Position numbers and translations under genes: made by a program | The notes under the pieces: model-generated | What the model was told of the DNA's origin: nothing | The model's database searches: none | Seen by the model: the letters and a program-made list of their open reading frames with translations, nothing else | Shown: piece by piece, positions 2,535 to 49,412 of the stretch | How positions within the stretch are numbered: position 1 is the stretch's first letter | Layout of the letters: each line of letters starts with the position of its first letter | IMG/VR virus record: IMGVR_UViG_3300005611_000006 | DNA length: 64,000 nucleotides | Strand: one strand, 5' to 3' | Source of the DNA: a virus | Taxonomy: Duplodnaviria; Caudoviricetes

Positions 2535-2640
2535 ACCGAGACCTATGGGGAGTATAAACAAGTCTCTAATACCAACACTGGAGGGTGGTGTTGGAATACT
2601 ATAAATCGTACGTTCCCCCGTACTACTACTTACCCTTTAA
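2535..2640 (+). ncRNA. Structured psbA 5' leader, likely PhotoRC-II RNA motif
   Basis: Stems GAGAC/GTCTC, CCAACACT/GGTGTTGG and GTACG/CGTAC, with complementary loops GGGGA/TCCCC; lies upstream of a phage psbA. Confidence 0.7.
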
Positions 2641-2644
2641 CGAA

Positions 2645-4155: not shown

Positions 4156-5217
4156 ATGGTAGCTTCAACATTAACACAACAACAATCACAACGAGGATGG
4201 TTTGATGTCCTGGATGACTGGCTTAAACGAGATCGCTTTGTCTTTGTGGGTTGGTCTGGACTCCTTCTTTTTCCCACTGCTTATTTGGCAATTGGTGGCT
4301 GGCTTACTGGCACGTCGTTTGTTACAAGCTGGTACACCCACGGGTTGGCGTCTTCCTATCTTGAGGGTGCTAATTTTCTCACGGCAGCAGTGTCAACTCC
4401 TGCTGACGCTATGGGTCATTCTCTTCTTCTACTTTGGGGTCCTGAGTCTCAAGGAGATTTCGTCAGGTGGTGCCAACTTGGAGGGCTTTGGTCCTTTGTT
4501 GCTTTCCACGGTGCATTCGCCCTTATTGGGTTTATGCTCAGGCAGTTTGAAATTGCTCGTCTCGTAGGGATTAGACCGTACAATGCGATTGCTTTTTCGG
4601 GTCCTATTGCCGTATTTGTTAGTGTATTTCTCATCTACCCTCTCGGACAATCGAGTTGGTTCTTTGCGCCGTCCTTTGGCGTTGCGGCGATATTCAGATT
4701 CTTACTATTTCTACAAGGATTTCATAACTGGACGCTCAACCCCTTTCATATGATGGGAGTTGCTGGTATACTTGGGGGAGCACTTCTTAGTGCAATTCAT
4801 GGCGTTACAGTAGAGAATACATTGTATGAAGACGGTGATCAAGCAAACACTTTCAAAGCTTTTGACAGCACCCAAGAAGAAGAAACTTATTCAATGGTTA
4901 CTGCCAATCGTTTTTGGTCGCAAATTTTCGGTATTGCATTCTCCAATAAAAGATTCCTACATTTTCTGATGCTTTTCGTTCCAGTTATGGGACTTTGGAC
5001 TTCTTCTATTGGTATTATTGGATTGGCATTTAATTTGAGGTCTTATGAATTTGTGAGTCAAGAAATCCGTGCTGCTGAAGATCCAGAATACGAAACATTC
5101 ACAACAAAAAATGTGCTTCTTAATGAGGGCATTAGAGCGTGGATGGCTCCTGTAGATCAACCAGGAGAGCGTTTTGTCTTTCCTGATGAGGTTCTCCCGA
5201 GAGGGAATGCCCTCTAA
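4156..5217 (+). CDS. psbD: Photosystem II D2 protein
   Basis: [39 protein letters not shown]. Confidence 0.99.
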
Positions 5218-5319: not shown

Positions 5320-5952
5320 ATGAAATACTACACTTACGCATATTTGCGTGAAGACGGCACACCTTATTACATTGGTAAAGGTAAGGGAAATAGAATAAAT
5401 CTTAAACATAGAAGACGCAATACAAAACATTTTAGTCCTCCCAATGATAAAAATAGAATCATTTTTTTAAAACAAAACCTTACAGAAGAGGAAGCATTTA
5501 AACACGAAAAATATATGATTTTTGTGTTTGGTAGAAAAGATTTAGGGACAGGTATTCTTCGTAATATGAGTGATGGTGGAGAAGGATCTTCTGGATTTGT
5601 TATGAGTGAAGAAGCAAAAAGAAAATTGAGTATTTCTCATACTGGAAAAACTAAATCACTTGAAACCAGAACAAAAATGAGTGCTGCCAGTAAAGGTAGG
5701 AATATTGGAAGAAAGCATTCTGAAGAAGATAAGATAAAAATGAGAGGGAATACTGAAGAAAAATGTATTCATTCTAAAACTTATAGAATAACTTTTAATA
5801 ATGGTTATGTGATTGAAAGGAATAGTGTATATCGTTGGGCAAAGAGTGAAGGATATAGTCCACACCACATATATGCTATGGCATCTGGCAAAAGAAATAA
5901 ACATAAAGATATTGTATCTGTGGAAAAGGTAGAAAATCTGGAAGCACTCTAA
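5320..5952 (+). CDS. Free-standing GIY-YIG homing endonuclease with NUMOD3 repeats (Seg-like)
   Basis: YYTYAYL...PYYIGKG..R; conserved E and N; NUMOD3-like KSLETRTKMS and HSEEDKIKM. Confidence 0.85.
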   Translation: MKYYTYAYLREDGTPYYIGKGKGNRINLKHRRRNTKHFSPPNDKNRIIFLKQNLTEEEAFKHEKYMIFVFGRKDLGTGILRNMSDGGEGSSGFVMSEEAKRKLSISHTGKTKSLETRTKMSAASKGRNIGRKHSEEDKIKMRGNTEEKCIHSKTYRITFNNGYVIERNSVYRWAKSEGYSPHHIYAMASGKRNKHKDIVSVEKVENLEAL

Positions 5953-26161: not shown

Positions 26162-28237
26162 ATGGAAGATACTATTTTAAAGCCAAAGGAAACTAAGACT
26201 CCAAAGGTTACTACTAAAATAACAAAAGTTAGTTCTATTTTAGAGTTTTCTGAAAAAGCAAAAAAAAGTTCTATAAAGTTAAGAAGAACTTTCGAGAGAG
26301 GGATTTATCAAAAAAGAACTCAACTTTCAGTTCTAGATAGATATAAAAAAAGATTAGATCAAATTGAAAAAGAAGATGAAAGAGTAGCAAAAAGAAGATC
26401 AAGAAGAAAAATTAAACTTCCAGAGGTTAAAAGATTTGCTGGCAATTTTTTCACTCCTGGTGCATCTGATGATCCATTTAAAGCAATTGCAGCATTAGCA
26501 GCTTTTAATGCTGCAACTAGTGCTTCTAGTGGTAATCTTATGGATGCTATTCCCCCAGGATTAGTGGCAGGTGCTATTTTTGGGGCACCATTAATTGGTC
26601 TTGGAGTAAAATCTTTATTCAGAGGTGGTAAAAAAATACCAAGAGGATTTGATGTTACTGGAAGAAGAGTTACTAAAGGAGCACAAAAAAGGTATAGAAG
26701 AAGATTTGGTGATCGTGAGTTTAAAAAAAGATTTGGTAAAGATGCTTTAAAAAGATCTAGTAAAACTAGTCGCGTAGGGAAAAAAGTAGTCAAGGGTGGT
26801 AGAGTTGCAAAATCTTTCGGAAAATTTGGAGCAGCAATTGTTCCTGGTCTTGGAGCAGTTGTTGGTGCTGCTGATGCCACACTTAGAGCACAATCTGGAG
26901 ATGTAACTGGAGCATCTATAGCAGGAACATCTGCAGCATTAGATGCTGCAGCGGCAGCTAGCGCAGCAACTGGAATTGGATTGCCAGTTGCTGGTTTACT
27001 TTCAATAGGATCTTTTGCATTAGATCTTGTAAATTTGTCTAGAGATTTGTTTGGACTTAGTGAAGCAGAAGAAGAAAAAAATAAAAAATTAAAAGAAGAT
27101 ACTGAATCTCCTGAAGAAAGGCTTAAGAAGCAAACGGAGGAGCAGAAATCTCTTGTCGAAAGATTAAAAGTAGATCCTAATAAACTCACTTTTAATAAAA
27201 CTTTAAAAAGTTATTTAAAAGCAATTAATAAACTTGAAGATTTTGTTAAGCAATTTTCAATTAAATCTAGATCTGAGTTATCGGAGGAGGGAATTAATTA
27301 TCCTTCATCAAGACAATTAACTTCACAAGAATCATATAAAGGTCCTATAAGTGGAGAAACATTCTTCCCACTTCCTGGTGGTCAGGAAGGACAAGAACTT
27401 GGACAACAGTTTGGAGCATCTAGAGATAGTGGAACAAGATCCCATAAGGGATTAGATATGGTTAAATTTACGGGAGATCTAGCTGCTCCAGTTGTTGCAT
27501 ATAAAACTGGAAAAGTAATAGTATCAGAAACCAACGGGTACAATGGATATGTTAGATTAAGTCATGGTCAAGGATTACAGACAATGTATTATCATATAAC
27601 TCCATCTGTTCAAGTTGGCGATACTGTATATGGCGGACAACAACTTGGAACATTATACCCAGTAGGGCAAAATACACACTTACACTTTGAAATTATTAGA
27701 GATGGTATAAAGGTAGACCCTAAAGAATTTGGAACTGGAAGAAATAAAATTTCAACTCCACTATCAAGAGAAAGAGCGAAAGAATTATTTGATAACAAGT
27801 CAAAACCACAGGTCAAACCAAAGAAAGAAAAACCTGAAGAAAATAATGAACCTGGAGAAAATTCTAGTAATGAATTTAGAATTGATGGAAAAAGATTTTA
27901 TCAAGGATCAGATGAAAGATATTATAAGGAATCTCAAGATGAAACAGTAGTACTTACTGAAGAAGAATATAATAAAGCTAAAGAAAGATATGATAATAAA
28001 TCAGGAAATGTTTCAACTTTATCTAGAGGGAGAAATATTGCACAATATCCATCATACTCTCCAAGTTCAATGCAAAATCAAGTGATTCCAGTTTCAATAC
28101 CAACATTGAATCAGGATATCAAGCAACCATCAACAATGATTCAAAATTCTTCCGCACCTATGTTAATGCAAGATTTAAGTGAAGAACAAATGTTAAATAG
28201 TTTATACAAGAGAGTTTTTCTCAATACAGTAGTATAA
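26162..28237 (+). CDS. Tape-measure/hub-like virion protein with an M23 peptidase domain
   Basis: HKGLD, YYHI, HLHFE (M23 zinc ligands). Confidence 0.7.
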   Translation: MEDTILKPKETKTPKVTTKITKVSSILEFSEKAKKSSIKLRRTFERGIYQKRTQLSVLDRYKKRLDQIEKEDERVAKRRSRRKIKLPEVKRFAGNFFTPGASDDPFKAIAALAAFNAATSASSGNLMDAIPPGLVAGAIFGAPLIGLGVKSLFRGGKKIPRGFDVTGRRVTKGAQKRYRRRFGDREFKKRFGKDALKRSSKTSRVGKKVVKGGRVAKSFGKFGAAIVPGLGAVVGAADATLRAQSGDVTGASIAGTSAALDAAAAASAATGIGLPVAGLLSIGSFALDLVNLSRDLFGLSEAEEEKNKKLKEDTESPEERLKKQTEEQKSLVERLKVDPNKLTFNKTLKSYLKAINKLEDFVKQFSIKSRSELSEEGINYPSSRQLTSQESYKGPISGETFFPLPGGQEGQELGQQFGASRDSGTRSHKGLDMVKFTGDLAAPVVAYKTGKVIVSETNGYNGYVRLSHGQGLQTMYYHITPSVQVGDTVYGGQQLGTLYPVGQNTHLHFEIIRDGIKVDPKEFGTGRNKISTPLSRERAKELFDNKSKPQVKPKKEKPEENNEPGENSSNEFRIDGKRFYQGSDERYYKESQDETVVLTEEEYNKAKERYDNKSGNVSTLSRGRNIAQYPSYSPSSMQNQVIPVSIPTLNQDIKQPSTMIQNSSAPMLMQDLSEEQMLNSLYKRVFLNTVV

Positions 28238-29541
28238 TGTCATCATATCTTAATTACAAAGTTCAAGAGTTTATAATTGAATCTTTAGATGAATCTCGTT
28301 CTATAGATGCAAGTGGGTGCATATCGGCAATAAAATATTATGAGGATTTATTTTCCCCATCAATATTCATTTCTATGATTCTTGTAAATACTGATGGTCT
28401 TTTGTCATCTCTTCCAATTCGTGGAGGGGAAAGAGTTAGATTAAAAATTGATCAAGAAGCGACAAAAAAATCAATTGATATTAGTCCTACAAAAAATTCA
28501 TATTATGTATATAAAGTATATGGATCTACTACACAATCTACTAGAGAAACTTTACTCGTAGAACTTGCTCCATCTGAATTGTTCATAAATGAAACTACAA
28601 GAGTTTTTAATCGTTATCCAGAAAGTGAAGGATCAGTAGAAAGTATTAGTGAATCTGTATCAAAAATACTAAATGATGTTCTTAAAACAACAAAACCTAA
28701 AGATATTGAATCATCAATGAATAGTTATTCATTTTTTGGAAATTCTAAAAAACCTTTTACTGTTTTGACTTGGCTATGTCCAAAAGCAATACCCCAGGTT
28801 GGAAAATCTTCAGGAATATCAGGAACTGCTGGATTCTTATTTTATGAAAATAAAAATGGATATAACTTTAAAAGTGTAGATTCTTTGATTAGTGGGTTAA
28901 AAGTAAACTCTGGAAACTCAAAAAAATATGAAAAATACTTTTATACTGAAAACGTTGGCGAACCAGCATCTAGTGATGAAAATTTTAAGGTCTTAACAAT
29001 TCCAACATTTGAGAAAAATGTAAACATTTTTGAAAATTTAAGGGTGGGTATGTATTCAAGTGTAAATTACTTTTACGATATTAATACTCGCGTTCCTTCT
29101 GTTTACAATTACAAACTTACAGAAAGTTACGATATTATGAAACATGCATCTAAAAGTACTGAAAGACCAAAAATACCAAATGGACTTGAGAATTCTCCTT
29201 CAAGATTGATGGTTAAGATGATTGATAACTATACTATGGATAAATTATCTCCATCAGGAGATTCAAAAGACTTAAAGGAGAAATATCAGTCACAATCAGT
29301 TGCAAGGTATAATCTTGCATTTAGTCAAACTTTAAACTTCACAGTTCCACTTAATATGAATCTTACAGTTGGAGATGTGATTGAGTTAAATATAGGTGAA
29401 GTTACAAAACAGAGAAAACAAAGGGACGATAAAAAGTCTGGTCTTTATCTAATAAAAGAACTTGCACATTCATTTGAAGGAAATCAAGGATACACTGGAC
29501 TTAAACTTATTCGAGATTCTTATGGAGCACAACAACAATGA
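28237..29541 (+). CDS. Baseplate hub protein (gp27-like)
   Basis: LPIRGGE, GFLFYEN..GYNFKS, SGLYLI..L.H; directly upstream of gp5. Confidence 0.6.
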   Translation: MSSYLNYKVQEFIIESLDESRSIDASGCISAIKYYEDLFSPSIFISMILVNTDGLLSSLPIRGGERVRLKIDQEATKKSIDISPTKNSYYVYKVYGSTTQSTRETLLVELAPSELFINETTRVFNRYPESEGSVESISESVSKILNDVLKTTKPKDIESSMNSYSFFGNSKKPFTVLTWLCPKAIPQVGKSSGISGTAGFLFYENKNGYNFKSVDSLISGLKVNSGNSKKYEKYFYTENVGEPASSDENFKVLTIPTFEKNVNIFENLRVGMYSSVNYFYDINTRVPSVYNYKLTESYDIMKHASKSTERPKIPNGLENSPSRLMVKMIDNYTMDKLSPSGDSKDLKEKYQSQSVARYNLAFSQTLNFTVPLNMNLTVGDVIELNIGEVTKQRKQRDDKKSGLYLIKELAHSFEGNQGYTGLKLIRDSYGAQQQ

Positions 29542-37000: not shown

Positions 37001-39369
37001 CATTTAATATACAAAGTATAAAGTTTTCTCAAAGTATTGAGAATTTATATCCTAAAATTGATGTTGATAATCTCATAGCAGATCCATTAGAATCTAGAAC
37101 AATTGCTTCTAACAAAACTATAGGAAAAGTTGAAATTAATGATGTTGAGAACAGTAGTACTAAAGAATCTACAATTGAATTTCTGAGGGATTATGGATTA
37201 GCAAATCAAATTACTCAGATAAGTGTAACAGGATCAACTTGTACAGTAACTACAAATATTAATCACGGATTGAGGGGAATTCAGCAACTTGCAGTTCAAT
37301 CTGCAGGGTCTGGATTTGTAAATGGAACTTGGTATGATATACCAGTTTGTCCCTATGATGGGTCTACTCAAGGTAGAGGTGCCAAAGTTAACGTAACTGT
37401 AAGTGGTGGAGTAGTAGCTTCCGCAAGTGTATCATATCCTGGAAGTGGATATGACCCTGGAAGTCTTGTTAGAATAAAGGGAATTCCACATACAGCAACA
37501 GATGGAGCAGAAGCTGCATTGGAAGTTGCTTCTGTGTTAAATAATACTCTTGATGGTATTCAAATATTTAATTCATTAAATCCTGAAAATAATGGATTTT
37601 TTGAGATTACAAGTGTAACTCCAAATACTATTGTATATGAAAATTCATCTGCAGTAGAAGAAACTATTTCAACTGCAATTTTTATTCCATCAGGAGTAAG
37701 AAATGCTGTTTCCAATTTTTCTTCTGGGACAAGGGTAGTTACAACGAGTTCTCCAAATTCGCTTTCTGTAGGAAATAAGGTTTATTTTTCATCACTCCCT
37801 GGTCAATCATTTAATGTCGTTTCCGTATTATCATCAACTAGTTTCAAAATTGATGGGACTTCTGATCCATCAGTAGCTGACAACTTATATGAAATTTCAC
37901 TATCCACATCATTAAGAGATAGTAATTCTTCTGCTGAAAATTTAAAATCTAGACAGTATTCATTCTTCACTGGAATTTCTGCTAGAACTAGAAATAATAG
38001 TGCCGGTGAAATTAGTTCCACTGATTCTGCTGTAAGACTAGTAAGCACTATAGGATTTTTTGTAGGAGACTTCATTCAAATTGATGAAGAAATTATGTAT
38101 GTCACTTCTGTGGCAGGATCTAATTTAAATATTAGTAGAGGATTATTTAATACAAAACCAGTTTTTCATATTAGAAATTCTATAGTTAGAAAACTAAATC
38201 CAATTCCAATAGAACTGAGAAGAAACTCAATTCTTCGTGCTTCTGGACATACTTTTGAGTACACTGGATATGGTCCAGGAAATTATTCTACAGGAATGCC
38301 AACAAATCAGGATAGAGTTTTAAGTGACGATGAAGTTTTAATTTCTCAGTCTTTACCCAGTAAGGGTGGATTAGTCTTATATACTGGAATGAATAGTGAT
38401 GGAGAATTTTTTATTGGTAAAAAGAAAATTAATGCCTTAACTGGAGAAGAAGTTTTATTGTCAGTACCTTTATCTGAAGATATTACAGAAAGAACTTTTT
38501 CAAATACTTTAGATGTCACTAAACTTACAGTAAATAGGGAATTAGATGCTTCTACTGCAAAAATTACTGCAAAAACTATAGAGGTTTTAGAATCAATTAC
38601 TACTGAAGATATAACTATCAATGGAGACTTTAATATAGATTCAATTGATGTTAATGATATAAATGGAAATACTTTAACTATTGGTTCTTCTCCAGGTATA
38701 ACAACAATTTCTAATGGAACTGTTGATACTAATACAGTAGATTCTGATACAGTAAATTCTACTACAGTAAATGCTACTACAGTAAATTCTACTACAGTAG
38801 GAGTTACTACATTAAATGCTACTACAGTAGGCGTTACTACAGTAAATGCTACTACAGTAAATGCTACTACTTTTGTCGGAAAGGGAACGATTCCAATTGG
38901 TGGAATTATTATGTGGTCTGGAACTCAAGCAGAACTTGACGAAATACCCGAATGGAAACTTTGTGATGGTGATGATGGAACTCCTGATTTGAGAAATAGA
39001 TTTATTGTTGCTGCTGCTACTATTAGTAAAAGCGGAACTACTTCTCAAACAGGTTCTGATCCTTATGATCCAGGTGATACTGGTGGTAATGCTAATGCGA
39101 TTGTTCCTCCCCATTATCATTTCATTGCCGCTAATACTGGAGCAACTTCTGGTGAAGATGGAAAGGATCCACTAACAGACACGCAATTTGTTTCTGATGT
39201 GGGATTTGGTGGAGAATCAGAACTTGATGAATATCGTGATTATGTATTAGAAACTTCGAATGATGAAGCGAATGTTGGAAGATCAAGTGGACCATTTCCA
39301 TCTGATGATGGTGCAAATGCAAACTTACCACCATATTATGCACTTGCATTTATTATGAGAATATCATAA
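34072..39369 (+). CDS. Large virion structural protein with a C-terminal tail-collar-like domain
   Basis: RPFKTIQRAL N-terminal motif, beta-rich body, PIGGIIMWSG..TPDLRNRF..PPYYALAFIM; GATAAATA at 34032. Confidence 0.8.
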   Translation: MALARLENFLKNLSGTVLYVDPGQLDSTDSIDNRGNSALRPFKTIQRALLEAVRFSYVSGVNNDIFNQTTILLSPGNHFIDNRPGHYVDGSTIKTFSGSVSSIPELSLETNFDIDDPQNVLYTYNSIEGGVIVPRGVSIVAEDIRKTKIRPKYVPNPNDDLIDRSAIFRLTGACYIFGFSILDGDPNGTVFSSPSSLAKVVPAYSHHKLTAFEYADGKNKQTKGGVNLDKTDLDIYYYKVSLGYGNAAGSPIIVDGYDNLQPNPEENKIVGDLGQGSIQISDIIAGDGGSNGTNVITVTTSVDHGLSPFASILISNVGSDDQQRAEYNGPFTVAQVISDTEFTYRVPSTPLSSLNPDVVIGDDGSSVSIVSDTVSSASPYVFNCSLRSVFGMCGLHADGSKATGFKSIVTAQFTGISLQKDDRAFVLYDEDTGTYQYQDAYGTSKFLHQDSRSTYRPEWENFHVKSSNNAFIQCVSIFAIGYAKQFVSESGGDQSITNSNSNFGAISLFSNGFRDYSLSKDNCGYITHIIPPKEISSIEDQIRCITIDSSLTSSEASSNGNTRVYLKDYTSLLDPPDSKFRGFTIGAKDSDKIFYNSSGTEYSATISPNYKLEFNITDIDPLTGYITLLEPFDIGTETGISTSQKVRIVSKNGIIPDGLESNKVYFINSDIIPSNVKISSNLLNSSGGPIVDIKNQNGASTGNLKLVSKVNDRSPNDVSSPIKWDESNNQWYIQIESNSQFISSLSQDFIFYLKRNIDTRSEDDKSYRARIVIPKEFENASEPTTGFIIQNTSSDLFEEYSTEATLTSLSQFRNKNIIIDAWESSGTAHVITKNPHRLSSNNLVEIYNLKSDNEPNPVGLGSGTGFNGSFRVSSVESETEFTYSLPSGVNPGGISTYSSSSQTWLDEGNCDSSTYRVPPYTIDSNSRNNLPYFVCKEVSSAYQCYKIDTIQEFSPGSSDGVYYATLNAFKNTPSESPFNIQSIKFSQSIENLYPKIDVDNLIADPLESRTIASNKTIGKVEINDVENSSTKESTIEFLRDYGLANQITQISVTGSTCTVTTNINHGLRGIQQLAVQSAGSGFVNGTWYDIPVCPYDGSTQGRGAKVNVTVSGGVVASASVSYPGSGYDPGSLVRIKGIPHTATDGAEAALEVASVLNNTLDGIQIFNSLNPENNGFFEITSVTPNTIVYENSSAVEETISTAIFIPSGVRNAVSNFSSGTRVVTTSSPNSLSVGNKVYFSSLPGQSFNVVSVLSSTSFKIDGTSDPSVADNLYEISLSTSLRDSNSSAENLKSRQYSFFTGISARTRNNSAGEISSTDSAVRLVSTIGFFVGDFIQIDEEIMYVTSVAGSNLNISRGLFNTKPVFHIRNSIVRKLNPIPIELRRNSILRASGHTFEYTGYGPGNYSTGMPTNQDRVLSDDEVLISQSLPSKGGLVLYTGMNSDGEFFIGKKKINALTGEEVLLSVPLSEDITERTFSNTLDVTKLTVNRELDASTAKITAKTIEVLESITTEDITINGDFNIDSIDVNDINGNTLTIGSSPGITTISNGTVDTNTVDSDTVNSTTVNATTVNSTTVGVTTLNATTVGVTTVNATTVNATTFVGKGTIPIGGIIMWSGTQAELDEIPEWKLCDGDDGTPDLRNRFIVAAATISKSGTTSQTGSDPYDPGDTGGNANAIVPPHYHFIAANTGATSGEDGKDPLTDTQFVSDVGFGGESELDEYRDYVLETSNDEANVGRSSGPFPSDDGANANLPPYYALAFIMRIS
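38720..38870 (+). repeat. 15-bp tandem coding repeat (NATTV/NSTTV/GVTTV)
   Basis: Recurrent ACTACAGTAAATGCT units. Confidence 0.8.
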
Positions 39370-39398
39370 ATACCTCTATAGTGGAGCAGTAGAATTAA

Positions 39399-42300
39399 AT
39401 GTCAATACTAGACAATTTTTTCAAAGTTAAAGTTGGTTTAGGTGTTGGAACAGATACACTATATGCAAATGCTGTAGAAAAAAATATTGCTATAGGTGGA
39501 ACTTCAGCAGACTATAAACTAGATGTTTATGGAACTGTATATAGTGATAGAGATGTATTGGTCAGTCGTGATGTTGGAATTGGGACAACAGCACCTATTC
39601 ATGAATTAGACGTAAGAGGTGTTGGAATAATTTCTAGTAGGATTGGAATTGGAACCACTAATCCTGAACAAGTTTTACAAATAGGAACTGGAAGTTCTAT
39701 AATTGTAGCTACAGGTTTTGGAAGTTTTGGAATAGGAGTTTTAAATCCTGTACAAAATTTTCAAGTTGGATCTGGATCATCAGTAGTAGTTGTTACTGGG
39801 GTTGGTTCAATTGGTATTCGTACTGAAACGCCAACTTATGATTTTCAATTAATTTCTAGCCAAAGTTCAAGTGATTTTGTAATTACTGGACTTGGATCAG
39901 TTGGTATTAATACATTTTTTCCAAATTTTAATTTAGATATTGCAGGGGACTTAAGAGTTACTGGATTCGCTACAATCAATAATGAATTTGTAGGTGTTTC
40001 AACAATTGGATTTGCTTCAATTACTAATGAACTTGTAGGTGTTTCCACAATTGGATTCGCTACGATTACTAATGAATTTGTAGGTGTTTCCACAATTGGA
40101 TTTGCTTCAATTACTAATGAATTTGTAGGTGTTTCCACAATTGGATTTGCAACTATTACTGATGCTTATATAGGAGTTGCTACTGTAGGATTTGCAACTA
40201 TTACTAATGAATTTGTAGGTGTCTCTACTATTGGATTCGCTACTATTACTGATGCATTCATTGGAGTTGCTACTGTAGGATTCGCTACGATTACTAATGA
40301 ATTTGTAGGTGTTTCAACAATTGGATTTGCAACTATTACTGATGCTTATATAGGAGTTGCTACTGTAGGATTTGCAACTATTACTGATGCTTATATAGGA
40401 GTTGCTACTGTAGGAATTGCTACTATAGAAAGAGAAAAAGTAGTTGTTTCTGAAATTGAAAATCTTCTTGTTACTGGAATTACAACTACAGCAAAGTTAG
40501 ATGTTGGTATTGGTGCTACCTTAGCTAAATTTGAAAGTCTTGGAATTACTTCAGTTTATTCTTTAGATAATACGTTAATAAAAAATATTGAGCCAATTGT
40601 TGGTATTGGAACAACAATACCAACTAGAACCTTAGATATTGCAGGAGACTTAAGAGTTCGTGGTGAAATACTTGACGCAAATAATCAAGTTGGATTTGCT
40701 TATTCCGTTCTTTCTTCAAGTGGAGCTCCAGGAATTACTGATAGATTTGTTGATGGTGCAAATTTATTAATAAGAAATAAGAATTTTATTACTGAAGAAA
40801 TTGTAGGATTTATTACAGCAACTGATGGACCATTTGGAATTTATGGACCAAACTTTGATTATGGTCCAGTCGGAGTAGAAACTGGACGAGCAAAATGTAA
40901 AAGAGATCTTGGTATTATTATTGATGCAATTGCTTTTGATATTACTAGAGGAGGAAACTCTCAATCTGTTGGAGCAGGAATATCATATACTTTAGGAAAT
41001 TACTTAGAATCAAGTAATCCCGCACCAACTGGATTAGATGGATATGCTGGAGGATATGTAAAGTTTGCAACACTTGCTGGAATTAGTTCTATATCACATA
41101 TAGCACAATATGTTATTAATAACTCTCCACTTCCTAGATCACATCAATCTGGAGTTGGAAGTATTACACAATTAGTTGATACTGAAATTCTTCCAGATGG
41201 TGATAGTAATACAAATTATCAAGGTTGTGCAAATGTTGCATCAGCAATTCATACCACAGTAGGAATTGTAACGACTATTATAGAAAATAACGGAATTAAT
41301 GGTACTGGAATTAGTACAAACTATCCTTCAGGAGAATTAGAGTGGAAACCACCAGGACCTTTAATTGGAAATGAGTGGTTTGTTAATAAATTTGGTAGTG
41401 ATTCAAACAATGGGGATAGTCCAGGAAATGCTTTCTTAACTATCAAAAAAGCAGCATCAGTTGCAGAACCTGGTGATACAATTAGAATCTATGCTGGTCT
41501 ATACATTGAAGATGGTCCAATCTCTCTATCCGAAAGAGTTGCTGTTGTTGGAGAAGATCTTAGAAGAACTCTTGTTACAACTAAAGATAAAACAGATTTG
41601 TATTATGTTAAGAGAGGATGCTATGTAGCGCAGCAATCCTTTGTAGGTGAAAGTAATCCAGGCAAAGCGATGGTTTCATTCCCAACACAGGGATTTGGAT
41701 TTGCTGATGGAACAGAACAAAATTGGCAATCACCATATATTCAAAATTGCACTAATTTTGTTCCAGATAGTATTGGAATGAGAATTGATGGTTCCCGTGC
41801 TGGTGGATTTAAGTCAATGGTTCTTGATGCGTATACACAATATAATCAAGGTGGAATTGGTGTTTCAATTACTAACTTTGGATATGCTCAATTAGTTTCT
41901 CTATTTACTATTTGTTGTGATACTGCGGTTTTTTGTGATAGTGGTGGGGTTTGTGATTTAAACAATAGTAACTCTAGTTTTGGAAATTTCGGTCTTGTTT
42001 CAAATGGGGCAACTCCATTACAATATATTGGAGAAGTAACTAATGTACCTGATGTAGATAATATTGATAGTATTACAATTAATGTTGGTGCTGGAGCATC
42101 TCAAGAATTTATTGATTCTGTAGATCTTCTTCGTTTAAACAAAGATTTTATTGCATCTGAAGTTGTAGGATTTATAACAAGTTCAGACGGTCCTTTTGGT
42201 GCTGCTGGTACTAATTTTGATTATGGTGGTTCTAAAAAAGGAAGAGAACTTTGCAGGAGAGACTCTAAAATAATTATTGAAAAAATTGCCTCAGATATCT

Positions 42301-43379
42301 TGACTCTTGGAAATGGAAATTCAATTGAAGCAGGACTTGCATATAGAGATTCTGATGATGGATCTTTAACTTATCTTGGAGAGACATCTCCTCCACCAGT
42401 AGGATTTAATACTGGATATGTAAAAGATGCTGAAATTGCAGCAATTGAATATCTTGCTGGAATATCTACATTTATCGTTCAGAATATAAGTGTTCCAACT
42501 GTATATCAATCTGGTGTGGGAACATTTGCTCAAGTTAAAGATGAATCTAAAACTTATTCAGCAGGAATAAATGATTTCATAGAATCTAGATCTGGAATTA
42601 TTACTAGTATTATTGGAATTGGTACAACAGCAGCACCAACATTAATTCTTCCAAAAGGTCAAAGACCTTATAATGGTCAAATTTCAGTTATTGATACTCA
42701 ATACTATTTTGTAAGTTCTATTAGACTTACAAATCCAGGATCTGGATATGATCCAAATATACCAGTTGAAGTTATTATAGATCTTCCTTCTGATCCTAAC
42801 TTCTTTATTCCAGCAGAAGCTGTTGTTACTGAAGGTAATATTTCTAGTTCTGGGGGAATTATATCAATTGATGTTCTTGTGTCTGGGACTGGATATGATA
42901 TTAGTGATCTTCCACAAGTTACAATTTCCGATCCTCCTGGAGGAGGAATTACTGCAGAGGCAGAGGTTGTACTTGAAAAATTATTTTTCCGCCCAACAGG
43001 ATCTACTCCTGTTTCTGCTGGAGGAACAACAACTGTAACTTTTGATGAATTTATTACTTATCCAGTAAGTATTGGAGCAAGTGTTTTATTTTTCCAGTCT
43101 AGTAAAATTATTGCAAGTAGTATTACATTTGAATATGTTGGAACTGGTATAAATATTGTTGATGCTATACCTTCAAAAGGAGCAGTTCCAATTACTGAAA
43201 ATGAAATTGTTGCTACAAATGGTGGTCAAATACCATTTACAAGCACAGATCAAGGAGGAAATTTTAAAATTAGTGAAGGTATTACTATTAACCAAAATAC
43301 TGGAACAATTAGTGGGCAAGCATTTAGTAAAAGTTTGCAAGCAGAAGTTACTCCATTAATTATCGCACTTCAACAATAA
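39399..43379 (+). CDS. Large virion structural protein: 10-aa repeats, two helical C-x-R-D domains and a beta-helix
   Basis: GIGT repeats; AFLTIKKA..GDTI...G.Y.E and SPYIQNCT beta-helix motifs; late-type CATAAATA at 39365. Confidence 0.8.
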   Translation: MSILDNFFKVKVGLGVGTDTLYANAVEKNIAIGGTSADYKLDVYGTVYSDRDVLVSRDVGIGTTAPIHELDVRGVGIISSRIGIGTTNPEQVLQIGTGSSIIVATGFGSFGIGVLNPVQNFQVGSGSSVVVVTGVGSIGIRTETPTYDFQLISSQSSSDFVITGLGSVGINTFFPNFNLDIAGDLRVTGFATINNEFVGVSTIGFASITNELVGVSTIGFATITNEFVGVSTIGFASITNEFVGVSTIGFATITDAYIGVATVGFATITNEFVGVSTIGFATITDAFIGVATVGFATITNEFVGVSTIGFATITDAYIGVATVGFATITDAYIGVATVGIATIEREKVVVSEIENLLVTGITTTAKLDVGIGATLAKFESLGITSVYSLDNTLIKNIEPIVGIGTTIPTRTLDIAGDLRVRGEILDANNQVGFAYSVLSSSGAPGITDRFVDGANLLIRNKNFITEEIVGFITATDGPFGIYGPNFDYGPVGVETGRAKCKRDLGIIIDAIAFDITRGGNSQSVGAGISYTLGNYLESSNPAPTGLDGYAGGYVKFATLAGISSISHIAQYVINNSPLPRSHQSGVGSITQLVDTEILPDGDSNTNYQGCANVASAIHTTVGIVTTIIENNGINGTGISTNYPSGELEWKPPGPLIGNEWFVNKFGSDSNNGDSPGNAFLTIKKAASVAEPGDTIRIYAGLYIEDGPISLSERVAVVGEDLRRTLVTTKDKTDLYYVKRGCYVAQQSFVGESNPGKAMVSFPTQGFGFADGTEQNWQSPYIQNCTNFVPDSIGMRIDGSRAGGFKSMVLDAYTQYNQGGIGVSITNFGYAQLVSLFTICCDTAVFCDSGGVCDLNNSNSSFGNFGLVSNGATPLQYIGEVTNVPDVDNIDSITINVGAGASQEFIDSVDLLRLNKDFIASEVVGFITSSDGPFGAAGTNFDYGGSKKGRELCRRDSKIIIEKIASDILTLGNGNSIEAGLAYRDSDDGSLTYLGETSPPPVGFNTGYVKDAEIAAIEYLAGISTFIVQNISVPTVYQSGVGTFAQVKDESKTYSAGINDFIESRSGIITSIIGIGTTAAPTLILPKGQRPYNGQISVIDTQYYFVSSIRLTNPGSGYDPNIPVEVIIDLPSDPNFFIPAEAVVTEGNISSSGGIISIDVLVSGTGYDISDLPQVTISDPPGGGITAEAEVVLEKLFFRPTGSTPVSAGGTTTVTFDEFITYPVSIGASVLFFQSSKIIASSITFEYVGTGINIVDAIPSKGAVPITENEIVATNGGQIPFTSTDQGGNFKISEGITINQNTGTISGQAFSKSLQAEVTPLIIALQQ
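39960..40430 (+). repeat. 30-bp tandem coding repeat (GFATITNEFV/GVSTI.. and GFATITDAYI/GVATV..)
   Basis: Near-identical ATTACTAATGAATTTGTAGGTGTTTCCACAATTGGA units. Confidence 0.85.
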
Positions 43380-43385
43380 ACAATT

Positions 43386-43769
43386 ATGGCACAATTACCT
43401 CTAAATCAATATAGGACAATCACTGGAATTGCAGAAACTACTAATGTAGGAATATATACAACAAAAACTGGTTATACTAGCGTCGTACTTTATGCTCAAG
43501 TAGCAAATACTGGATTAGGAATTGGAACTATAAGTTTTTATCATCAAAGAGATACGAGATCAGGTGGTGGTGGAATTACAACAGAAACCACAGAATTAAT
43601 TTATAATGTTCAGGTTCCACCTAATGATGCAGTAGTTTTACTTGATGGTAGATTAGTTTTAGAAAAAACAGCACTAAAGACTGATAGTCTTAGGTTAGTT
43701 GGTGTATCATCAACTAATCCAAATCATCTTAAATATACTGTCAGTATATTAGAAACTTTAAATCAATAA
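43386..43769 (+). CDS. Hypothetical virion protein
   Basis: 127 aa, beta-rich, within the structural operon. Confidence 0.75.
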   Translation: MAQLPLNQYRTITGIAETTNVGIYTTKTGYTSVVLYAQVANTGLGIGTISFYHQRDTRSGGGGITTETTELIYNVQVPPNDAVVLLDGRLVLEKTALKTDSLRLVGVSSTNPNHLKYTVSILETLNQ

Positions 43770-43806
43770 TAAATAACTTTAACTAGGGGGATAGTGGAAC
43801 CCAAAA

Positions 43807-46800
43807 ATGGCAAGATACCTAAGCAAAAGAGTTTCAAGAACACCACAGTCAAGATTAACCTCTGATAGATATCAATTTCTTGGGTTAAATCAAGCTGAAC
43901 CTAATTTAGGAGATCCTCCTGGAGTAGAAATTCCTATTGGTCAGCAATATATGGTAGTTAGTTTAACTAACTATCCAGGTGAAAGATATTGGGTTCCTGT
44001 TCCTCCCGGAATTGTTGAGCTTGGAATTACCGTAAGAGATGAAGGTAATATTATTGGTGGATTATCTGGAATTGGATCTATTACTCAATTAAATTTTGTT
44101 GGCCCAGGAGTTACTGTAACAGGGGTTGTAACTGAAGGATTAGGTATTGCAACAGTTACTGTAGAAGCTGTTAATTCAGTAGCAGATGAACCAGTAGATG
44201 CCTTTCCGAGATTTATTGGATTTACAAGTGTTAGATCTGGTTCTGCTGTAACATCATTTGATATTGCTCCAGATACTTTAGTATTCATTCCAAATACACA
44301 AAATCTTGGTATTGGTTCAACCCAACCTCAATATGCGATTGATGTTGGGTTATCTACTGTCAGAATTCAAGGGGATATTGCAGATAAGTTTGGTGATATA
44401 GGAACTGGGTTATATTTAAAAGCGTTAGGTCCTGGATTAGGTGTTACCTGGGCTACAGCGATTGGACCTCAAGGTCTTCAAGGTATACAAGGTATTCAGG
44501 GAACACAAGGTCTTCAGGGAATACAGGGAATAACTGGGGAACAAGGTCTTCAAGGAATTCAGGGAACTCAAGGGATTCAAGGTTCTCAGGGAATTCAGGG
44601 AATTCAAGGAATTATTGGTCCTCAAGGTTTTCAGGGAAATCAAGGAATTCAAGGAATTCAAGGAGATTTAGGACCACAGGGAACTCAAGGATCTCAAGGA
44701 CCTCAAGGAATCCAAGGAATTCAAGGTGAACAGGGAATTCAAGGTATTCAAGGAATTCAAGGTGAACAGGGAATTCAAGGAATCCAAGGAATTCAAGGTT
44801 CTCAAGGAACTCAAGGAACTCAAGGAATTCAAGGTATTGCTGGAGAAGGAAATCAAGGTCTACAAGGAATTCAAGGTAGACAGGGAATTCAAGGTAGACA
44901 AGGAACTCAAGGAATTCAAGGTATTGCTGGAGATCAAGGAAATCAAGGGACTCAAGGTAGGCAAGGATCCCAAGGATCACAAGGTAGACAGGGAATTCAA
45001 GGTATTGCTGGAGAAGGAAATCAAGGTTTACAGGGTACACAAGGAATTCAAGGTAGGCAAGGTCTACAAGGAATTCAAGGTTCAGGAGCTCAAGGTTTTC
45101 AAGGTAGACAAGGTAGGCAAGGTCTACAAGGAAGACAGGGAATTCAAGGTGAAATAGGAGCTGGTCTACAAGGAATCCAAGGAATTCAAGGAGTTCAAGG
45201 AATTCAAGGAGTTTCTGGGACAGGTGGAACTCAAGGATCTCAGGGAATTCAAGGTATTCAGGGTGAAATAGGATCCCAAGGAATTCAAGGAATTCAAGGA
45301 ATTCAAGGAATTCAAGGAAGGCAGGGTCTTCAAGGTGGTGCTGGAGAAGGTGGAACTCAAGGTCTTCAAGGAATTCAAGGTGAACAAGGAACTCAAGGAA
45401 TTCAAGGAACTCAAGGAACTCAAGGAATTCAAGGAATCCAAGGCGAACTAGGAGAACAAGGAATTCAAGGAATTCAAGGAATTTCTGGGTCAGGTGGAAC
45501 TCAAGGATCACAAGGAACTCAAGGAATTCAAGGAAGACAAGGAATTCAAGGTGAAACTGGACTTCAAGGTACTCAAGGAATTCAAGGAATTCAAGGAAGA
45601 CAAGGATCACAAGGAATTCAAGGTGAACTAGGAGAACAAGGAGTTCAAGGAATTCAAGGTGGTCCTGGAGAAGGTGGAATTCAAGGATCTCAAGGAATTC
45701 AAGGAATTCAAGGAATCCAAGGAATTCAGGGTAGACAAGGAACTCAAGGAATTCAGGGTAGACAAGGAACTCAAGGAACTCAAGGAACTAATGGAACTTC
45801 TGTAACAATTGTTGGAACTTTAGCTCTTACTCCAGGCAATGAGCAAGCAGAACTTAATGCAGTTTCAAATCCTTGGTATCCACCCTCAGCTGGAGATGGT
45901 GTTATAGATTCTAATACTGGAGATCTTTGGGTTTATGACGGTTCTGTTTGGAACAATGTAGGACAGATTCAAGGAGATGATGGAGCTCAAGGTATCCAAG
46001 GAATTCAAGGAATTCAAGGAATTCAAGGAACTCAAGGAATTCAAGGAATTCAAGGTGGTGCTGGAGAAGGTGGAACTCAAGGTGCTCAAGGTAGACAAGG
46101 AATTCAAGGAATACAAGGAATTCAAGGAAGGCAAGGAAGACAAGGAATTCAAGGAGATCAAGGAGATATAGGAACTCAAGGTGCTCAAGGTAGACAAGGT
46201 AGACAAGGTAGACAAGGAATTCAAGGAGATCAAGGAGATCAGGGTATTCAAGGTTTCCAAGGAACTTCTGGATCAGGTGGAACTCAAGGTGCTCAAGGTA
46301 GACAAGGAATTCAAGGTAGACAAGGAATTCAAGGAAGGCAAGGAAGACAAGGAATTCAAGGAGATCAAGGAGATATAGGAACTCAAGGTTTTCAGGGAAA
46401 TCAAGGAAGGCAAGGTAGACAAGGAATTCAAGGAATACAGGGCAGACAAGGTAGACAAGGTAGACAGGGAATTTCTGGAACGGGCGGAAGTCAAGGAATT
46501 CAGGGAATACAAGGAATTCAAGGTAGACAAGGTTTTCAAGGTAGACAAGGTAGACAAGGACTCACTGGAACTGGTGATCAGGGAACTCAAGGTATACAAG
46601 GAATTCAAGGTAGACAAGGTAGACAAGGAATTTCTGGAACTGGTAATCAGGGAGCTCAAGGAACTAAAGGCGATAGAGGTAATCAAGGTAGACAAGGAAT
46701 TCAAGGAATCTCTGGAGAAGGAAATCAAGGTTTACAAGGAATTCAAGGTAGACAAGGTAGACAAGGTAGACAGGGAATTTCTGGATCAATAGGTCTTCAA

Positions 46801-48198
46801 GGAAGGCAAGGAAGACAAGGTAGACAAGGAATTCAAGGAAGGCAAGGAAGACAAGGAGTTAAAGGGGATAGTGGAAGCACTGCTACAAGAGCGGATGCTG
46901 CAAGATTTTTATCTCCGAAGACTTCAGATTATAATAATGTAACTCAGCAAGGAGCTTATATTGATTGGAATAGATCTGAAGCTGTTAGAGGATCTACTTG
47001 GTTTATTAATCAAAGAGGAAGCGCATCTGGAGGATGGTATTTTGCAAGTTCAAATACGTCTAATACTCTAGAAAATAATATTCTTAGATTAAGTAGAGCT
47101 GGTGATTTATATTTTGAGGGTATTTCTGGAACAACTTCAAATCAAAGTCGTGGAATTTTTTGGACTGCCTATGATAAAGAAGGAACTAGTGATAGAAGTG
47201 ATGAAGCTTCAATTCGCCATAGAACCAATATAGGAGGACTTGCTGGATCTGTACTGGAGATAAAATCTTTAAATGATTCTAATGATGGAATAAACTTTGA
47301 TGTTCCTAATAATGATAGTGTTAGGATAAGAGGAAATATTGTTTTAAATGCAGGAAACTTTACTAATTTTGTTGCTGGAACTGCAACAAGATTACAAGCT
47401 ACAGTTGCCGGAAATGATTATATTCGTATTCAAGGTGGCGGTTCAAATAATAGTGGATACTTGGAAATTGCAACCGCTGATGATGCAAGTGAACCAATTT
47501 ATGTACGTCAATATTCAGGAGTATTCTCAAACATTAGTAGAACACTTACTCTTCTTGATGGTAGTGGAAATACTGTTGTTCCTGGAAGACTGGGTGTTAA
47601 TAGATCACCATCATCTCCATATCATTTAGATGTCAGTGGACAGGGAAGATTTAGCAACTCTGTTCTTATACAGAATAATTTAACTACAACAGGACAGATC
47701 TATATTAATAATGGTTCTCCAACAATTTACTTAAGAGATAGTAATCATAGATCTTCAATGATTCATTGCAATAGCAATAGATTCTATATATTAAGAGGAT
47801 CTGGAAACAACTCAACTAGTTGGGTATCAACTAATAATCATTGGCCACTAGAAATTAACTTGGAAAATAATGATGCTGAATTTGGGGGAGCACTTACTGT
47901 TAATGGTAATATACTTTCTACTGGTACAGTTACAGCAATTTCTGATATTAAATTGAAAGATAATATTGTAACAATTGAAAATGCTCTTGAAAAAGTTATG
48001 AATCTTCGTGGTGTTAAATATAATAGGAAAGACTTAGATAATGTTACTGAGATTGGTGTGATTGCCCAAGAAGTTCAAAAAGTACTTCCTGAAGTTGTTT
48101 TTGAAGATGATGGAATTAAATCCGTAGCATATGGAAATATTATTGCAGTTTTAATTGAAGCAATAAAAGAATTAAAATTAAAATTAGACAATAAATAG
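43807..48198 (+). CDS. Collagen-like tail fibre with a C-terminal S74-like chaperone
   Basis: Long (G-X-Q)n; SDIKLKDNI..GVIAQEV..VAYGN. Confidence 0.88.
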   Translation: MARYLSKRVSRTPQSRLTSDRYQFLGLNQAEPNLGDPPGVEIPIGQQYMVVSLTNYPGERYWVPVPPGIVELGITVRDEGNIIGGLSGIGSITQLNFVGPGVTVTGVVTEGLGIATVTVEAVNSVADEPVDAFPRFIGFTSVRSGSAVTSFDIAPDTLVFIPNTQNLGIGSTQPQYAIDVGLSTVRIQGDIADKFGDIGTGLYLKALGPGLGVTWATAIGPQGLQGIQGIQGTQGLQGIQGITGEQGLQGIQGTQGIQGSQGIQGIQGIIGPQGFQGNQGIQGIQGDLGPQGTQGSQGPQGIQGIQGEQGIQGIQGIQGEQGIQGIQGIQGSQGTQGTQGIQGIAGEGNQGLQGIQGRQGIQGRQGTQGIQGIAGDQGNQGTQGRQGSQGSQGRQGIQGIAGEGNQGLQGTQGIQGRQGLQGIQGSGAQGFQGRQGRQGLQGRQGIQGEIGAGLQGIQGIQGVQGIQGVSGTGGTQGSQGIQGIQGEIGSQGIQGIQGIQGIQGRQGLQGGAGEGGTQGLQGIQGEQGTQGIQGTQGTQGIQGIQGELGEQGIQGIQGISGSGGTQGSQGTQGIQGRQGIQGETGLQGTQGIQGIQGRQGSQGIQGELGEQGVQGIQGGPGEGGIQGSQGIQGIQGIQGIQGRQGTQGIQGRQGTQGTQGTNGTSVTIVGTLALTPGNEQAELNAVSNPWYPPSAGDGVIDSNTGDLWVYDGSVWNNVGQIQGDDGAQGIQGIQGIQGIQGTQGIQGIQGGAGEGGTQGAQGRQGIQGIQGIQGRQGRQGIQGDQGDIGTQGAQGRQGRQGRQGIQGDQGDQGIQGFQGTSGSGGTQGAQGRQGIQGRQGIQGRQGRQGIQGDQGDIGTQGFQGNQGRQGRQGIQGIQGRQGRQGRQGISGTGGSQGIQGIQGIQGRQGFQGRQGRQGLTGTGDQGTQGIQGIQGRQGRQGISGTGNQGAQGTKGDRGNQGRQGIQGISGEGNQGLQGIQGRQGRQGRQGISGSIGLQGRQGRQGRQGIQGRQGRQGVKGDSGSTATRADAARFLSPKTSDYNNVTQQGAYIDWNRSEAVRGSTWFINQRGSASGGWYFASSNTSNTLENNILRLSRAGDLYFEGISGTTSNQSRGIFWTAYDKEGTSDRSDEASIRHRTNIGGLAGSVLEIKSLNDSNDGINFDVPNNDSVRIRGNIVLNAGNFTNFVAGTATRLQATVAGNDYIRIQGGGSNNSGYLEIATADDASEPIYVRQYSGVFSNISRTLTLLDGSGNTVVPGRLGVNRSPSSPYHLDVSGQGRFSNSVLIQNNLTTTGQIYINNGSPTIYLRDSNHRSSMIHCNSNRFYILRGSGNNSTSWVSTNNHWPLEINLENNDAEFGGALTVNGNILSTGTVTAISDIKLKDNIVTIENALEKVMNLRGVKYNRKDLDNVTEIGVIAQEVQKVLPEVVFEDDGIKSVAYGNIIAVLIEAIKELKLKLDNK
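44464..46875 (+). repeat. 9-bp collagen repeat (GGAATTCAA variants), interrupted at about 45787-45966
   Basis: Directly visible tandem repeats. Confidence 0.9.
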
Positions 48199-48209
48199 GA
48201 GAAAATTCT

Positions 48210-48707
48210 ATGGCAATTTTACAAACAGATTTTAATAATATAGCAGTTACTAATAATAGTGGAAAAATTTTATTAAGGACTTCTGGGTCTGTTCTAGACT
48301 ATGTTCAGAATGGTACCACTCGTGCCGAGATTAACGTAAGTGTAGGCAATGGACGTGAAATTTCGAGAATAAGACCATCTATAACTCCAAAATCAAATGC
48401 TTCCAGAATTTTAGTAACGTTTAATATAAATTGGAGTACTGACCAAAATGGTTTTTATTACTTTTCATTAAGGAGATACATTAATGGGGCTTTAAATTAT
48501 ACGACAGGTAGATTAATAACTTTTAATATAGGTGGTATTGATCCTTCACAGCTTTATAATCCAATGAATTATACTTATATTGATCATCCAAACACAACTG
48601 CAACTGTTCAATATAGAGTACTGGTTACTGCTAGTGGGCCTCTGGAGATGGATATAAATAGAGTTGGAAATCCTTATAGTTCAATGCAATTGTTGGAGTT
48701 AGCATAA
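48210..48707 (+). CDS. Fibre-tip-like beta-sandwich protein
   Basis: ITPKS..SRILV, YIDHP.TT..VQY; AGGAG RBS. Confidence 0.65.
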   Translation: MAILQTDFNNIAVTNNSGKILLRTSGSVLDYVQNGTTRAEINVSVGNGREISRIRPSITPKSNASRILVTFNINWSTDQNGFYYFSLRRYINGALNYTTGRLITFNIGGIDPSQLYNPMNYTYIDHPNTTATVQYRVLVTASGPLEMDINRVGNPYSSMQLLELA

Positions 48708-49031
48708 ATGGAATCAAATTACTTTTTAATTGAAGCAATAAAAAAATTATACTCAGGAACTTTTAGTGTTACTGAAACTGGAATTTATGAAGAAATTGAG
48801 TGGTTATCTGAAGATATTGAAAAACCAACTCTTGAAGAAATTCAAGCAGAAGTGCAAAGACTTGAAGAAGAATGGGAAAAAACAGAATATCAAAGATTTC
48901 GATCTAAAGAATACCCTCCACTAGAAGATTTTGTAGATGCTTATTATTGGGTACAAAAAGGAGAAAGTACTCTAATGGATGAATATATTTCTAGGTGTGA
49001 TGAGGTAAAAGAAAAATATCCAAAATCTTAA
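48708..49031 (+). CDS. Tail fibre assembly-like small protein (XkdW-like)
   Basis: KPT.EEI, YQR.R..EYP, VKEKYPK. Confidence 0.6.
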   Translation: MESNYFLIEAIKKLYSGTFSVTETGIYEEIEWLSEDIEKPTLEEIQAEVQRLEEEWEKTEYQRFRSKEYPPLEDFVDAYYWVQKGESTLMDEYISRCDEVKEKYPKS

Positions 49032-49067
49032 ATAATAGATAAATAACTCTAGAATTAATTTAAAGTA

Positions 49068-49412
49068 ATGTCAGTAGCAGTAGTCAATTTAGTTATTGAG
49101 CAAGGTGCTGACTTTTCATTATCTTTAACATTGAAGGCAAATGGAGAACCTATAGATTTATCTGGATATACATATTCAGCTAAAATGAAAAAGCACTACG
49201 GTGCAAATACTTCATACCCATTTACAGTCACTCCAGGAACTCCTCTTACAAATGGAGTAGTAAGTATTGGAATGTCAGAATCTTTAACCGCAACAATTCC
49301 TCCCGGAAGATATGTTTATGATGTTTTAATTACTGATGCTGGAATTGGTTCATCTGCTATTACATCAAAATACTTTAAAGGTACAGTTATAGTGGAGGGA
49401 AGTGCGTCTTAA
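49068..49412 (+). CDS. Fibre attachment/adaptor protein (BppU-like)
   Basis: NLVIEQGADF, DLSGYT, GRYVYDV; GATAAATA at 49038. Confidence 0.65.
   Translation: MSVAVVNLVIEQGADFSLSLTLKANGEPIDLSGYTYSAKMKKHYGANTSYPFTVTPGTPLTNGVVSIGMSESLTATIPPGRYVYDVLITDAGIGSSAITSKYFKGTVIVEGSAS

Follow-up and report, generated by a model that had tools for sequence, protein, structure and literature searches.

The stretch of viral DNA analysed here (64,000 nucleotides; IMG/VR virus record IMGVR_UViG_3300005611_000006; Duplodnaviria, Caudoviricetes), referred to below as the window, belongs to a T4-like cyanomyovirus and carries psbA, psbD, gp32, gp59, gp53, baseplate, and tail-tube genes together with a block of very large fibre genes. 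The open reading frame (ORF) at 39399–43379 sits in the baseplate/tail-fibre gene block, next to genes for a gp5-like hub, the baseplate, and collagen-like fibres, and encodes a protein of 1326 amino acids (aa) that contains two copies of a helical domain resembling the phycobiliproteins (PBPs). Homology to PHROG fibre families and the position in the tail gene module identify the product as a phage tail fibre/baseplate protein, in agreement with a preliminary description of the sequence, which had placed the two domains in a virion protein. The features of the protein are as follows.

39399..43379, + strand: tail-fibre-like virion protein P0001 (1326 aa) with both domains inside; from the ORF list, with matches to PHROGs phrog_17885 (E 2.9e-118), 5342, and 9851
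39962..40458, + strand: about 10 tandem 15-aa repeats GFATITNEFVGVSTI within the N-terminal fibre shaft; Tandem Repeats Finder, period 45 nt, 9.5 copies, 80% matches
40740..41285, + strand: PBP-like globin-fold domain, copy 1 (aa 448–629, seven helices); AlphaFold, Foldseek, VIA-align, and a hidden Markov model (HMM) searched against the PDB
40896..40907, + strand: Cys500-Lys-Arg502-Asp503, aligned with the PBP Cys84-x-Arg86-Asp87 bilin site; HMMER and hhalign alignments
41226..41228, + strand: Cys610, the second Cys of copy 1; the last helix begins at the next residue (AlphaFold)
41361..42068, + strand: middle region, probably a right-handed beta-helix; N-terminal motif resembling the beta-helix xylosidase 3vst (E 0.0067), PHROG tail-fibre matches at aa 777–882
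42102..42620, + strand: PBP-like globin-fold domain, copy 2 (aa 902–1074); 43% identity to copy 1, seven-helix pattern
42252..42263, + strand: Cys952-Arg-Arg954-Asp955, the CxRD motif of copy 2; translation and domain alignments
42660..43376, + strand: C-terminal conserved tail-fibre domain (aa 1088–1325); best stretch for phrog_17885 and phrog_3442

The translated sequence upstream of copy 1 is a Gly-rich beta fibre, and higher-order periods of 90 and 180 nt in the GFATITNEFVGVSTI array suggest recent duplications; the beta-helix region was modelled with low confidence by AlphaFold. The two domain copies are paralogous, their identity extending over 155 columns with E 2e-39 when aa 438–644 are compared with aa 894–1094 by BLASTP. 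The two homologous helical domains that the preliminary description had reported in this ORF are therefore real, with AlphaFold helix limits close to the coordinates proposed, and its residue numbering for Cys500 (CKRD), Cys610, and Cys952 (CRRD) is correct. It had also pointed to a second cysteine, located before the last helix and present only in copy 1. The position and the absence from copy 2 hold, but the residue is not a feature of the family and is lineage-specific: Cys610 is kept in copy 1 and in 8/8 copy-1 orthologues, and a second Cys is found in 30% of the 168 instances aligned at the Cys610 column. In the predicted structure, the position of Cys610 appears topologically like that of the beta-155 site of PBPs.

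Copy 1, modelled by AlphaFold without templates and from phage sequences only, is predicted to consist of seven helices (pLDDT 84.5, pTM 0.85). Among the Foldseek matches listed for this model in the PDB, all are PBPs or PBP-derived, with a probability of 1.00 and TM of ~0.5–0.6 over ~190 columns. An exhaustive VIA-align search placed phycoerythrin, ApcE, and allophycocyanin chains in the top eight positions (Z 14.5–11.3), with phycoerythrin beta as the best match (Z 14.5) and the bilin-binding domain of ApcE at Z 12.9 and an rmsd of 2.0, followed by globin-coupled sensors, RsbR, and photocobilin globins (Z 10–11), and by classical globins (Z 6–8). The globin fold anticipated in the preliminary description was thus recovered by structure prediction, with PBPs ranked first. 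A 658-aa model comprising copy 1, the beta-helix, and copy 2 was poor (pLDDT 48.6), copy 2 reaching a local pLDDT of 75–88. The same fold is found in BFVD in predicted tail or structural proteins of many Synechococcus phages.

The relationship to PBPs is also detected at the level of sequence, most clearly with profiles. Searched with the single sequence of copy 1, phmmer returned just two matches among all PDB sequences, both to phycocyanin alpha on the Cys84 helix, at an E value of 0.58 that is not significant alone. When an alignment of 32 phage domains from the window and from IMG/VR contigs (A2) was converted into an HMM and compared with 177,635 PDB sequences, 36 of the 37 matches were PBPs, the exception being a papillomavirus capsid protein (E 0.3); in the best match, to phycocyanin alpha (E 5.5e-5), profile positions 3–80 are aligned with residues 27–103, and the Cys, Arg, and Asp of the phage motif fall on Cys84, Arg86, and Asp87. 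Profile–profile comparison by hhalign with 22 PBPs from the Synechococcus WH7803, Synechocystis salina, and Calothrix genomes gave a probability of 86% (E 4.7e-6) for A2 and of 92% (E 8e-7, score 47) for 349 repeats sharing <60% mutual identity, while 30 column-shuffled PBP alignments scored at most 16.6 and a reversed alignment 11.4. The Cys-x-Arg-Asp on helix E, the Cys84 site, is thus aligned residue for residue with PBPs, and the likeness to the PBP "KCxRD...GG" helix and the preceding "N" helix, first noticed by eye, is reproduced in both the HMMER and the hhalign alignments. PF00502, the PBP family of Pfam, is the top Pfam family for the A2 members (E 0.0034), and its best six-frame match, to a repeat in a viral contig, reaches 16.4 bits (E 8.8e-5), under the gathering score of 22.2 bits. 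No Pfam, NCBIfam, or UniProt name reflects the PBP relationship, the ESM Atlas gave no usable match, and full-text searches turned up no paper on the domain. Because the profile–sequence, profile–profile, and structure-prediction evidence agree, the domain very probably represents a divergent, unannotated branch of the PBP/globin lineage.

The domain is not confined to this protein. A HMMER scan of 1.84 billion representative proteins (clusters at 50% identity) with the domain profile matched 572 proteins at E <= 1e-3, 127 of them at E <= 1e-30. The best 150 of the 572 range in length from 790 to 6382 aa, and a single protein contains as many as 34 matched stretches; 1322 domain instances were located in these 150 proteins, mostly spaced 100–200 aa apart (median 159). 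The domain is therefore a widespread module, present in 1 to ~34 copies and inserted into baseplate (gp7-like) and tail-fibre proteins of cyanophages, a repeat-module nature that the preliminary description had not identified. Across the ~1308 instances from these 150 proteins that entered the column statistics, the CxRD motif (Cys 99%, Arg 96%, Asp 100%) stands out and provides, together with D514, Y530, and N460, the most conserved positions, so the conservation of the first attachment-site Cys, which had been put forward as a check, is nearly complete. The motif is preceded by a conserved Asn (97%), Glu (83%), and Tyr (82%), and is followed by Gly (80%), Asp (83%), a further Asp (99%), Gly-Gly-Asn (84%), and Tyr (99%). 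No conserved histidine occurs across the domain in these instances.

The phage domain shares with the PBPs (PF00502, comprising the phycocyanin, phycoerythrin, and allophycocyanin subunits and the PBP-like domain of ApcE) a globin-type helical fold, and aligns with them at the B-helix Asn, the GN.Y loop, the E-helix CxRD, and the following Gly-Gly turn. In contrast to PBPs, it scores under the Pfam cut-off and lacks the N-terminal X-Y hairpin that builds the alpha-beta monomer, as the alignments start from PBP residue 24–27 onward. PBPs are free subunits of 160–180 aa encoded by cells, whereas the phage-encoded domain is a module, often in tandem, of virion fibre proteins of 800–6400 aa, and its CxRD helix is followed by additional invariant Asp, Asn, and Tyr residues. 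The BBAGs and photoglobins (PMC10151467), which are PBP paralogues outside the light-harvesting antenna, can be compared by description only: some of them carry CXRD and bind bilin covalently without a lyase, but they are stand-alone cellular proteins clustered with heme oxygenase (HO) and a bilin reductase (FDBR), while the phage domain is fused into virion proteins, usually with no adjacent bilin genes. A point in common is that one IMG/VR contig described below (G003) combines HO, a PcyX-like reductase, and domain-bearing structural proteins. Like the Ig-like and collagen-like repeats that decorate phage fibres, the domain is a modular bead between beta-helical fibre segments and varies in copy number; it differs from them in being all-helical and globin-like and in having a ligand-site motif that is 99–100% conserved, a kind of motif not found in purely structural repeats. 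Within the PBP/globin superfamily, the domain is most suitably classed as a new variant in a new context, that of a repeat module of phage virion fibres.

Among sequenced phages, the domain is restricted to cyanophages, apart from one uncultured marine virus record. A tblastn search of 50,697 phage records with copy 1 matched 260, all of them Synechococcus, Prochlorococcus, or "Cyanophage" records except one uncultured "Marine virus", and a divergent repeat from another contig matched 142 records with the same make-up, again including one "Marine virus". The comparison of cyanophages with other phages that the preliminary description had called for thus came out in its favour. In the cultured phages P-HM2 and S-PM2, the domain lies in giant proteins annotated as gp7-like (baseplate) or tail-fibre proteins. 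No domain match was found in the pelagiphages Mosig and HTVC008M, and the domain was therefore rejected as an explanation for the HO and PcyX genes of these two phages.

Within cyanophages, the distribution of the domain resembles that of cpeT, a phage gene whose role "remains unresolved" according to Sullivan et al. (PMC3037559). The 21 genomes compared fall into the following groups.

Domain and cpeT (n = 12): P-HM1, P-HM2, S-PM2, S-SM1, P-RSM4, Syn33, Syn19, Syn1, S-SSM5, P-SSM4, Syn9, S-RSM4
Domain, no cpeT (n = 3): S-ShM2, P-SSM7, S-SKS1
Neither domain nor cpeT (n = 6): P-SSM2, P-SSP7, S-SM2, S-SSM7, S-CRM01, S-TIM5
cpeT only (n = 0): none of the 21 genomes

Thus, cpeT is present in 12/15 domain-bearing and 0/6 domain-less genomes (Fisher p = 0.0015, uncorrected). 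The cpeT candidate of P-SSM7 was sub-threshold in this search, and the count of 12/16 given by Sullivan et al. suggests that this phage has the gene (PMC3037559). In S-PM2, cpeT is located 1.4 kb upstream of a domain-bearing giant fibre gene. In the region NC_006820.1, 163952–177267, the CpeT-like gene and a 2OG-Fe(II) oxygenase gene stand directly upstream of the domain-bearing gene for a 3779-aa "short tail fiber" protein; the RefSeq record places many tRNA features within the 3779-aa open frame, which looks like an annotation coordinate problem.

Genes for bilin synthesis were met together with the domain in G003, where HO and FDBR lie ~30 kb from the domain-bearing genes; among the relatives of the window, which were searched for HO, FDBR, and CpeT with otherwise negative results, it is the sole contig with both HO and FDBR. 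This non-T4-like viral contig, whose ATP ligase is nearest to Bacillus phage ligases, encodes heme oxygenase, a PcyX-like bilin reductase (nearest to that of Pelagibacter phage Mosig), and two structural proteins with the PBP-like domain (37595–49246 and 78921–80125). G003 may represent a connection, beyond the cyanomyoviruses, between bilin synthesis by phages and globins of the virion.

A further correspondence concerns adsorption. In the dark, according to Liu et al., P-HM1 and P-HM2 fail to adsorb, whereas P-SSM2 and P-SSP7 adsorb; light-sensitive receptors or tail fibres were proposed (PMC6628666). The adsorption of S-PM2 is described there, with reference to Jia 2010, as light-dependent and independent of host photosynthesis, and dim red light is reported to have no effect (PMC6628666). 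Profile searches of the complete genomes found five domain matches in P-HM2, five in P-HM1, and nine in S-PM2, and none in P-SSM2 or P-SSP7; for P-SSM2, six-frame hmmsearch with three HMMs and filters off likewise found none.

In PBPs, CXRD is the chromophore motif, with the bilin bound covalently through Cys and held by hydrogen bonds from Arg and Asp (Rockwell et al. 2023, PMC10151467), and BBAG globins with CXRD attach bilins without lyases (PMC10151467). That CxRD has stayed the most conserved feature while more than 1300 copies diverged so widely speaks for a ligand site that has been preserved. In the explanation preferred here, each domain would take up a bilin, probably phycoerythrobilin, during virion assembly inside the infected cyanobacterium, and a thioether would fix the bilin to the CxRD cysteine. 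The bilin would be synthesised by the host or, for some phages, from viral genes. Attachment could be autocatalytic, as in BBAG globins, or aided by a phage CpeT-like protein or host lyases, and the fibres would then carry chromophores. In the most speculative step, absorbed light would alter the conformation of the fibre or baseplate, leading to the light-dependent adsorption of some cyanomyoviruses. The explanation as a whole, from a PBP-derived module through bilin-carrying fibres to this light step, is given a probability of roughly 0.5. For its parts, both of them plausible hypotheses, the odds that the domain binds a bilin at the CxRD cysteine are about even, while a role of the domains in light responses seems unlikely. 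Chromophorylation by host lyases and the roles in light sensing, photoprotection, or host docking put forward in the preliminary description are likewise hypothetical. The fullest version, in which cyanophage particles would carry their own bilin photoreceptors, chromophorylated in the host with CpeT as a maturation factor and gating adsorption by light, would explain the light-only attachment of P-HM1, P-HM2, and S-PM2 independent of host photosynthesis, and is likewise doubtful.

Several observations weigh against bilin-carrying fibres. When the whole protein and the two domains were scanned against Pfam and NCBIfam, no model reached its cut-off, and the sequence alignment with PBPs covers only the N-terminal two thirds of the domain. 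Several other residues of the bilin pocket are not conserved, the GN.Y loop Asn, for example, being present in 25% of 1308 instances, and the family has extra invariant polar residues of its own. We infer bilin attachment from the motif, and we know of no report of pigmented cyanophage particles. Neither the window nor its closest relative (155 kb, 76% complete) encodes a detectable heme oxygenase, bilin reductase, or CpeT; a tblastn search of the window with S-PM2 CpeT found nothing, and the clustering with heme oxygenase and FDBR that is typical of BBAGs is not seen in the window or its closest relatives. S-ShM2 and S-SKS1 bear the domain and have no detectable cpeT. P-SSM2 carries pebS and ho1 (PMC3037559) and does not have the domain, so the domain alone does not explain phage bilin synthesis. 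The T-type lyases are known for the Cys155 (beta-155) site, not for Cys84 (PMC10452541). The cpeT correlation is small and confounded by phylogeny: a tree of one gene places P-SSM2, S-SSM7, and S-SM2 in the same group, the joint absence of domain and cpeT in marine T4-like phages may therefore be one event, and the Fisher statistic then overstates independence. The adsorption correlation is also small and confounded by phylogeny, as the fit between domain presence and the need for light, although perfect, extends over five phages, two of which are the same species.

One rival explanation is a pigment-free structural or receptor-binding module, in which the PBP-derived helical domain would serve as a rigid decoration or as a knob binding the host surface, and the CxRD, Asp, Asn, and Tyr residues would be retained because they stabilise the fold, bring domains into contact with each other, or bind a ligand other than bilin, for example a metal or a component of the host envelope. 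Use as a repeated bead, up to 34 times per protein, is usual for structural repeats, the invariant polar residues D514, N520, Y530, N460, and E467 have no known bilin role in PBPs, and the lineage of the window shows no bilin or lyase genes; further conserved Cys residues in the beta-helix part mean that a free Cys is not exceptional in this protein. What speaks for a pigment, on the other hand, is that the CxRD triad of PBPs serves the chromophore and not the fold (PMC10151467), and it is this triad that is most strongly kept among the diverged copies; without a pigment, only coincidence or phylogeny would account for the confinement to cyanophages and the joint occurrence with cpeT. The pigment-free module is thus a credible alternative, held tentatively.

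Two other explanations would alter the assignment itself, and both are very improbable. A convergent helical bundle, resembling PBPs by chance or analogy without shared ancestry, would be compatible with the modest sequence scores, which stay under the Pfam gathering score, and with the phmmer E value of 0.58; the VIA-align notes moreover warn that arrangement alone can give helical models a Z of ~13. However, three independent methods agree in placing PBPs first and above all other globins, the hhalign score of 47 stands far from the shuffled controls, and the motif matches a functional site residue for residue, together with the B-helix Asn and the GN.Y loop. A globin-type sensor with another cofactor, either heme, as in globin-coupled sensors, or cobalamin and bilin, as in photocobilins, draws on the structural search, in which globin-coupled sensors, RsbR, and photocobilin globins come directly after the PBPs (Z 10–11), but PBPs rank higher there and are the sole family found by sequence. 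Heme binding was rejected, as the domain has no conserved histidine to ligate it.

Elsewhere in the window, the photosystem genes and the sequences next to the fibre gene may be noted briefly.

2585–3727: psbA (Photo_RC, E 3.5e-89)
4156–5217: psbD (Photo_RC, E 7.5e-72)

An ORF resembling NUMOD3 homing endonucleases follows psbA and psbD at 5320–5952. The domain-bearing fibre protein ends in ...VTPLIIALQQ and is followed by a 127-aa ORF (phrog_1276) and then by a collagen-like fibre protein of 1463 aa (window 43386–48198). The closest relatives of the tail protein at 28237–29538 (phrog_350) are those of S-SKS1 (48% identity) and of P-SSM2 and S-SSM7 (38–40%); since P-SSM2 and S-SSM7 do not have the PBP-like domain, its presence differs among fairly close baseplate lineages.

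If bilin binding is true, no virus particle with a light-absorbing chromoprotein among its components would, as far as is known and in the literature searched, have been described before. The domain would then provide a candidate basis for the light-dependent adsorption of some cyanomyoviruses without host photosynthesis, as well as a candidate role for phage cpeT, and it would bear on why the phages of Prochlorococcus, a host without phycobilisomes, carry phycobilin synthesis genes, which "remains a mystery" (PMC3037559). Model phages amenable to culture and purification, namely S-PM2, Syn9, P-HM2, and S-SM1, carry the domain. Even without a pigment, it represents a new and very large branch of the PBP/globin superfamily, bearing on the origin of PBPs and on their horizontal spread.

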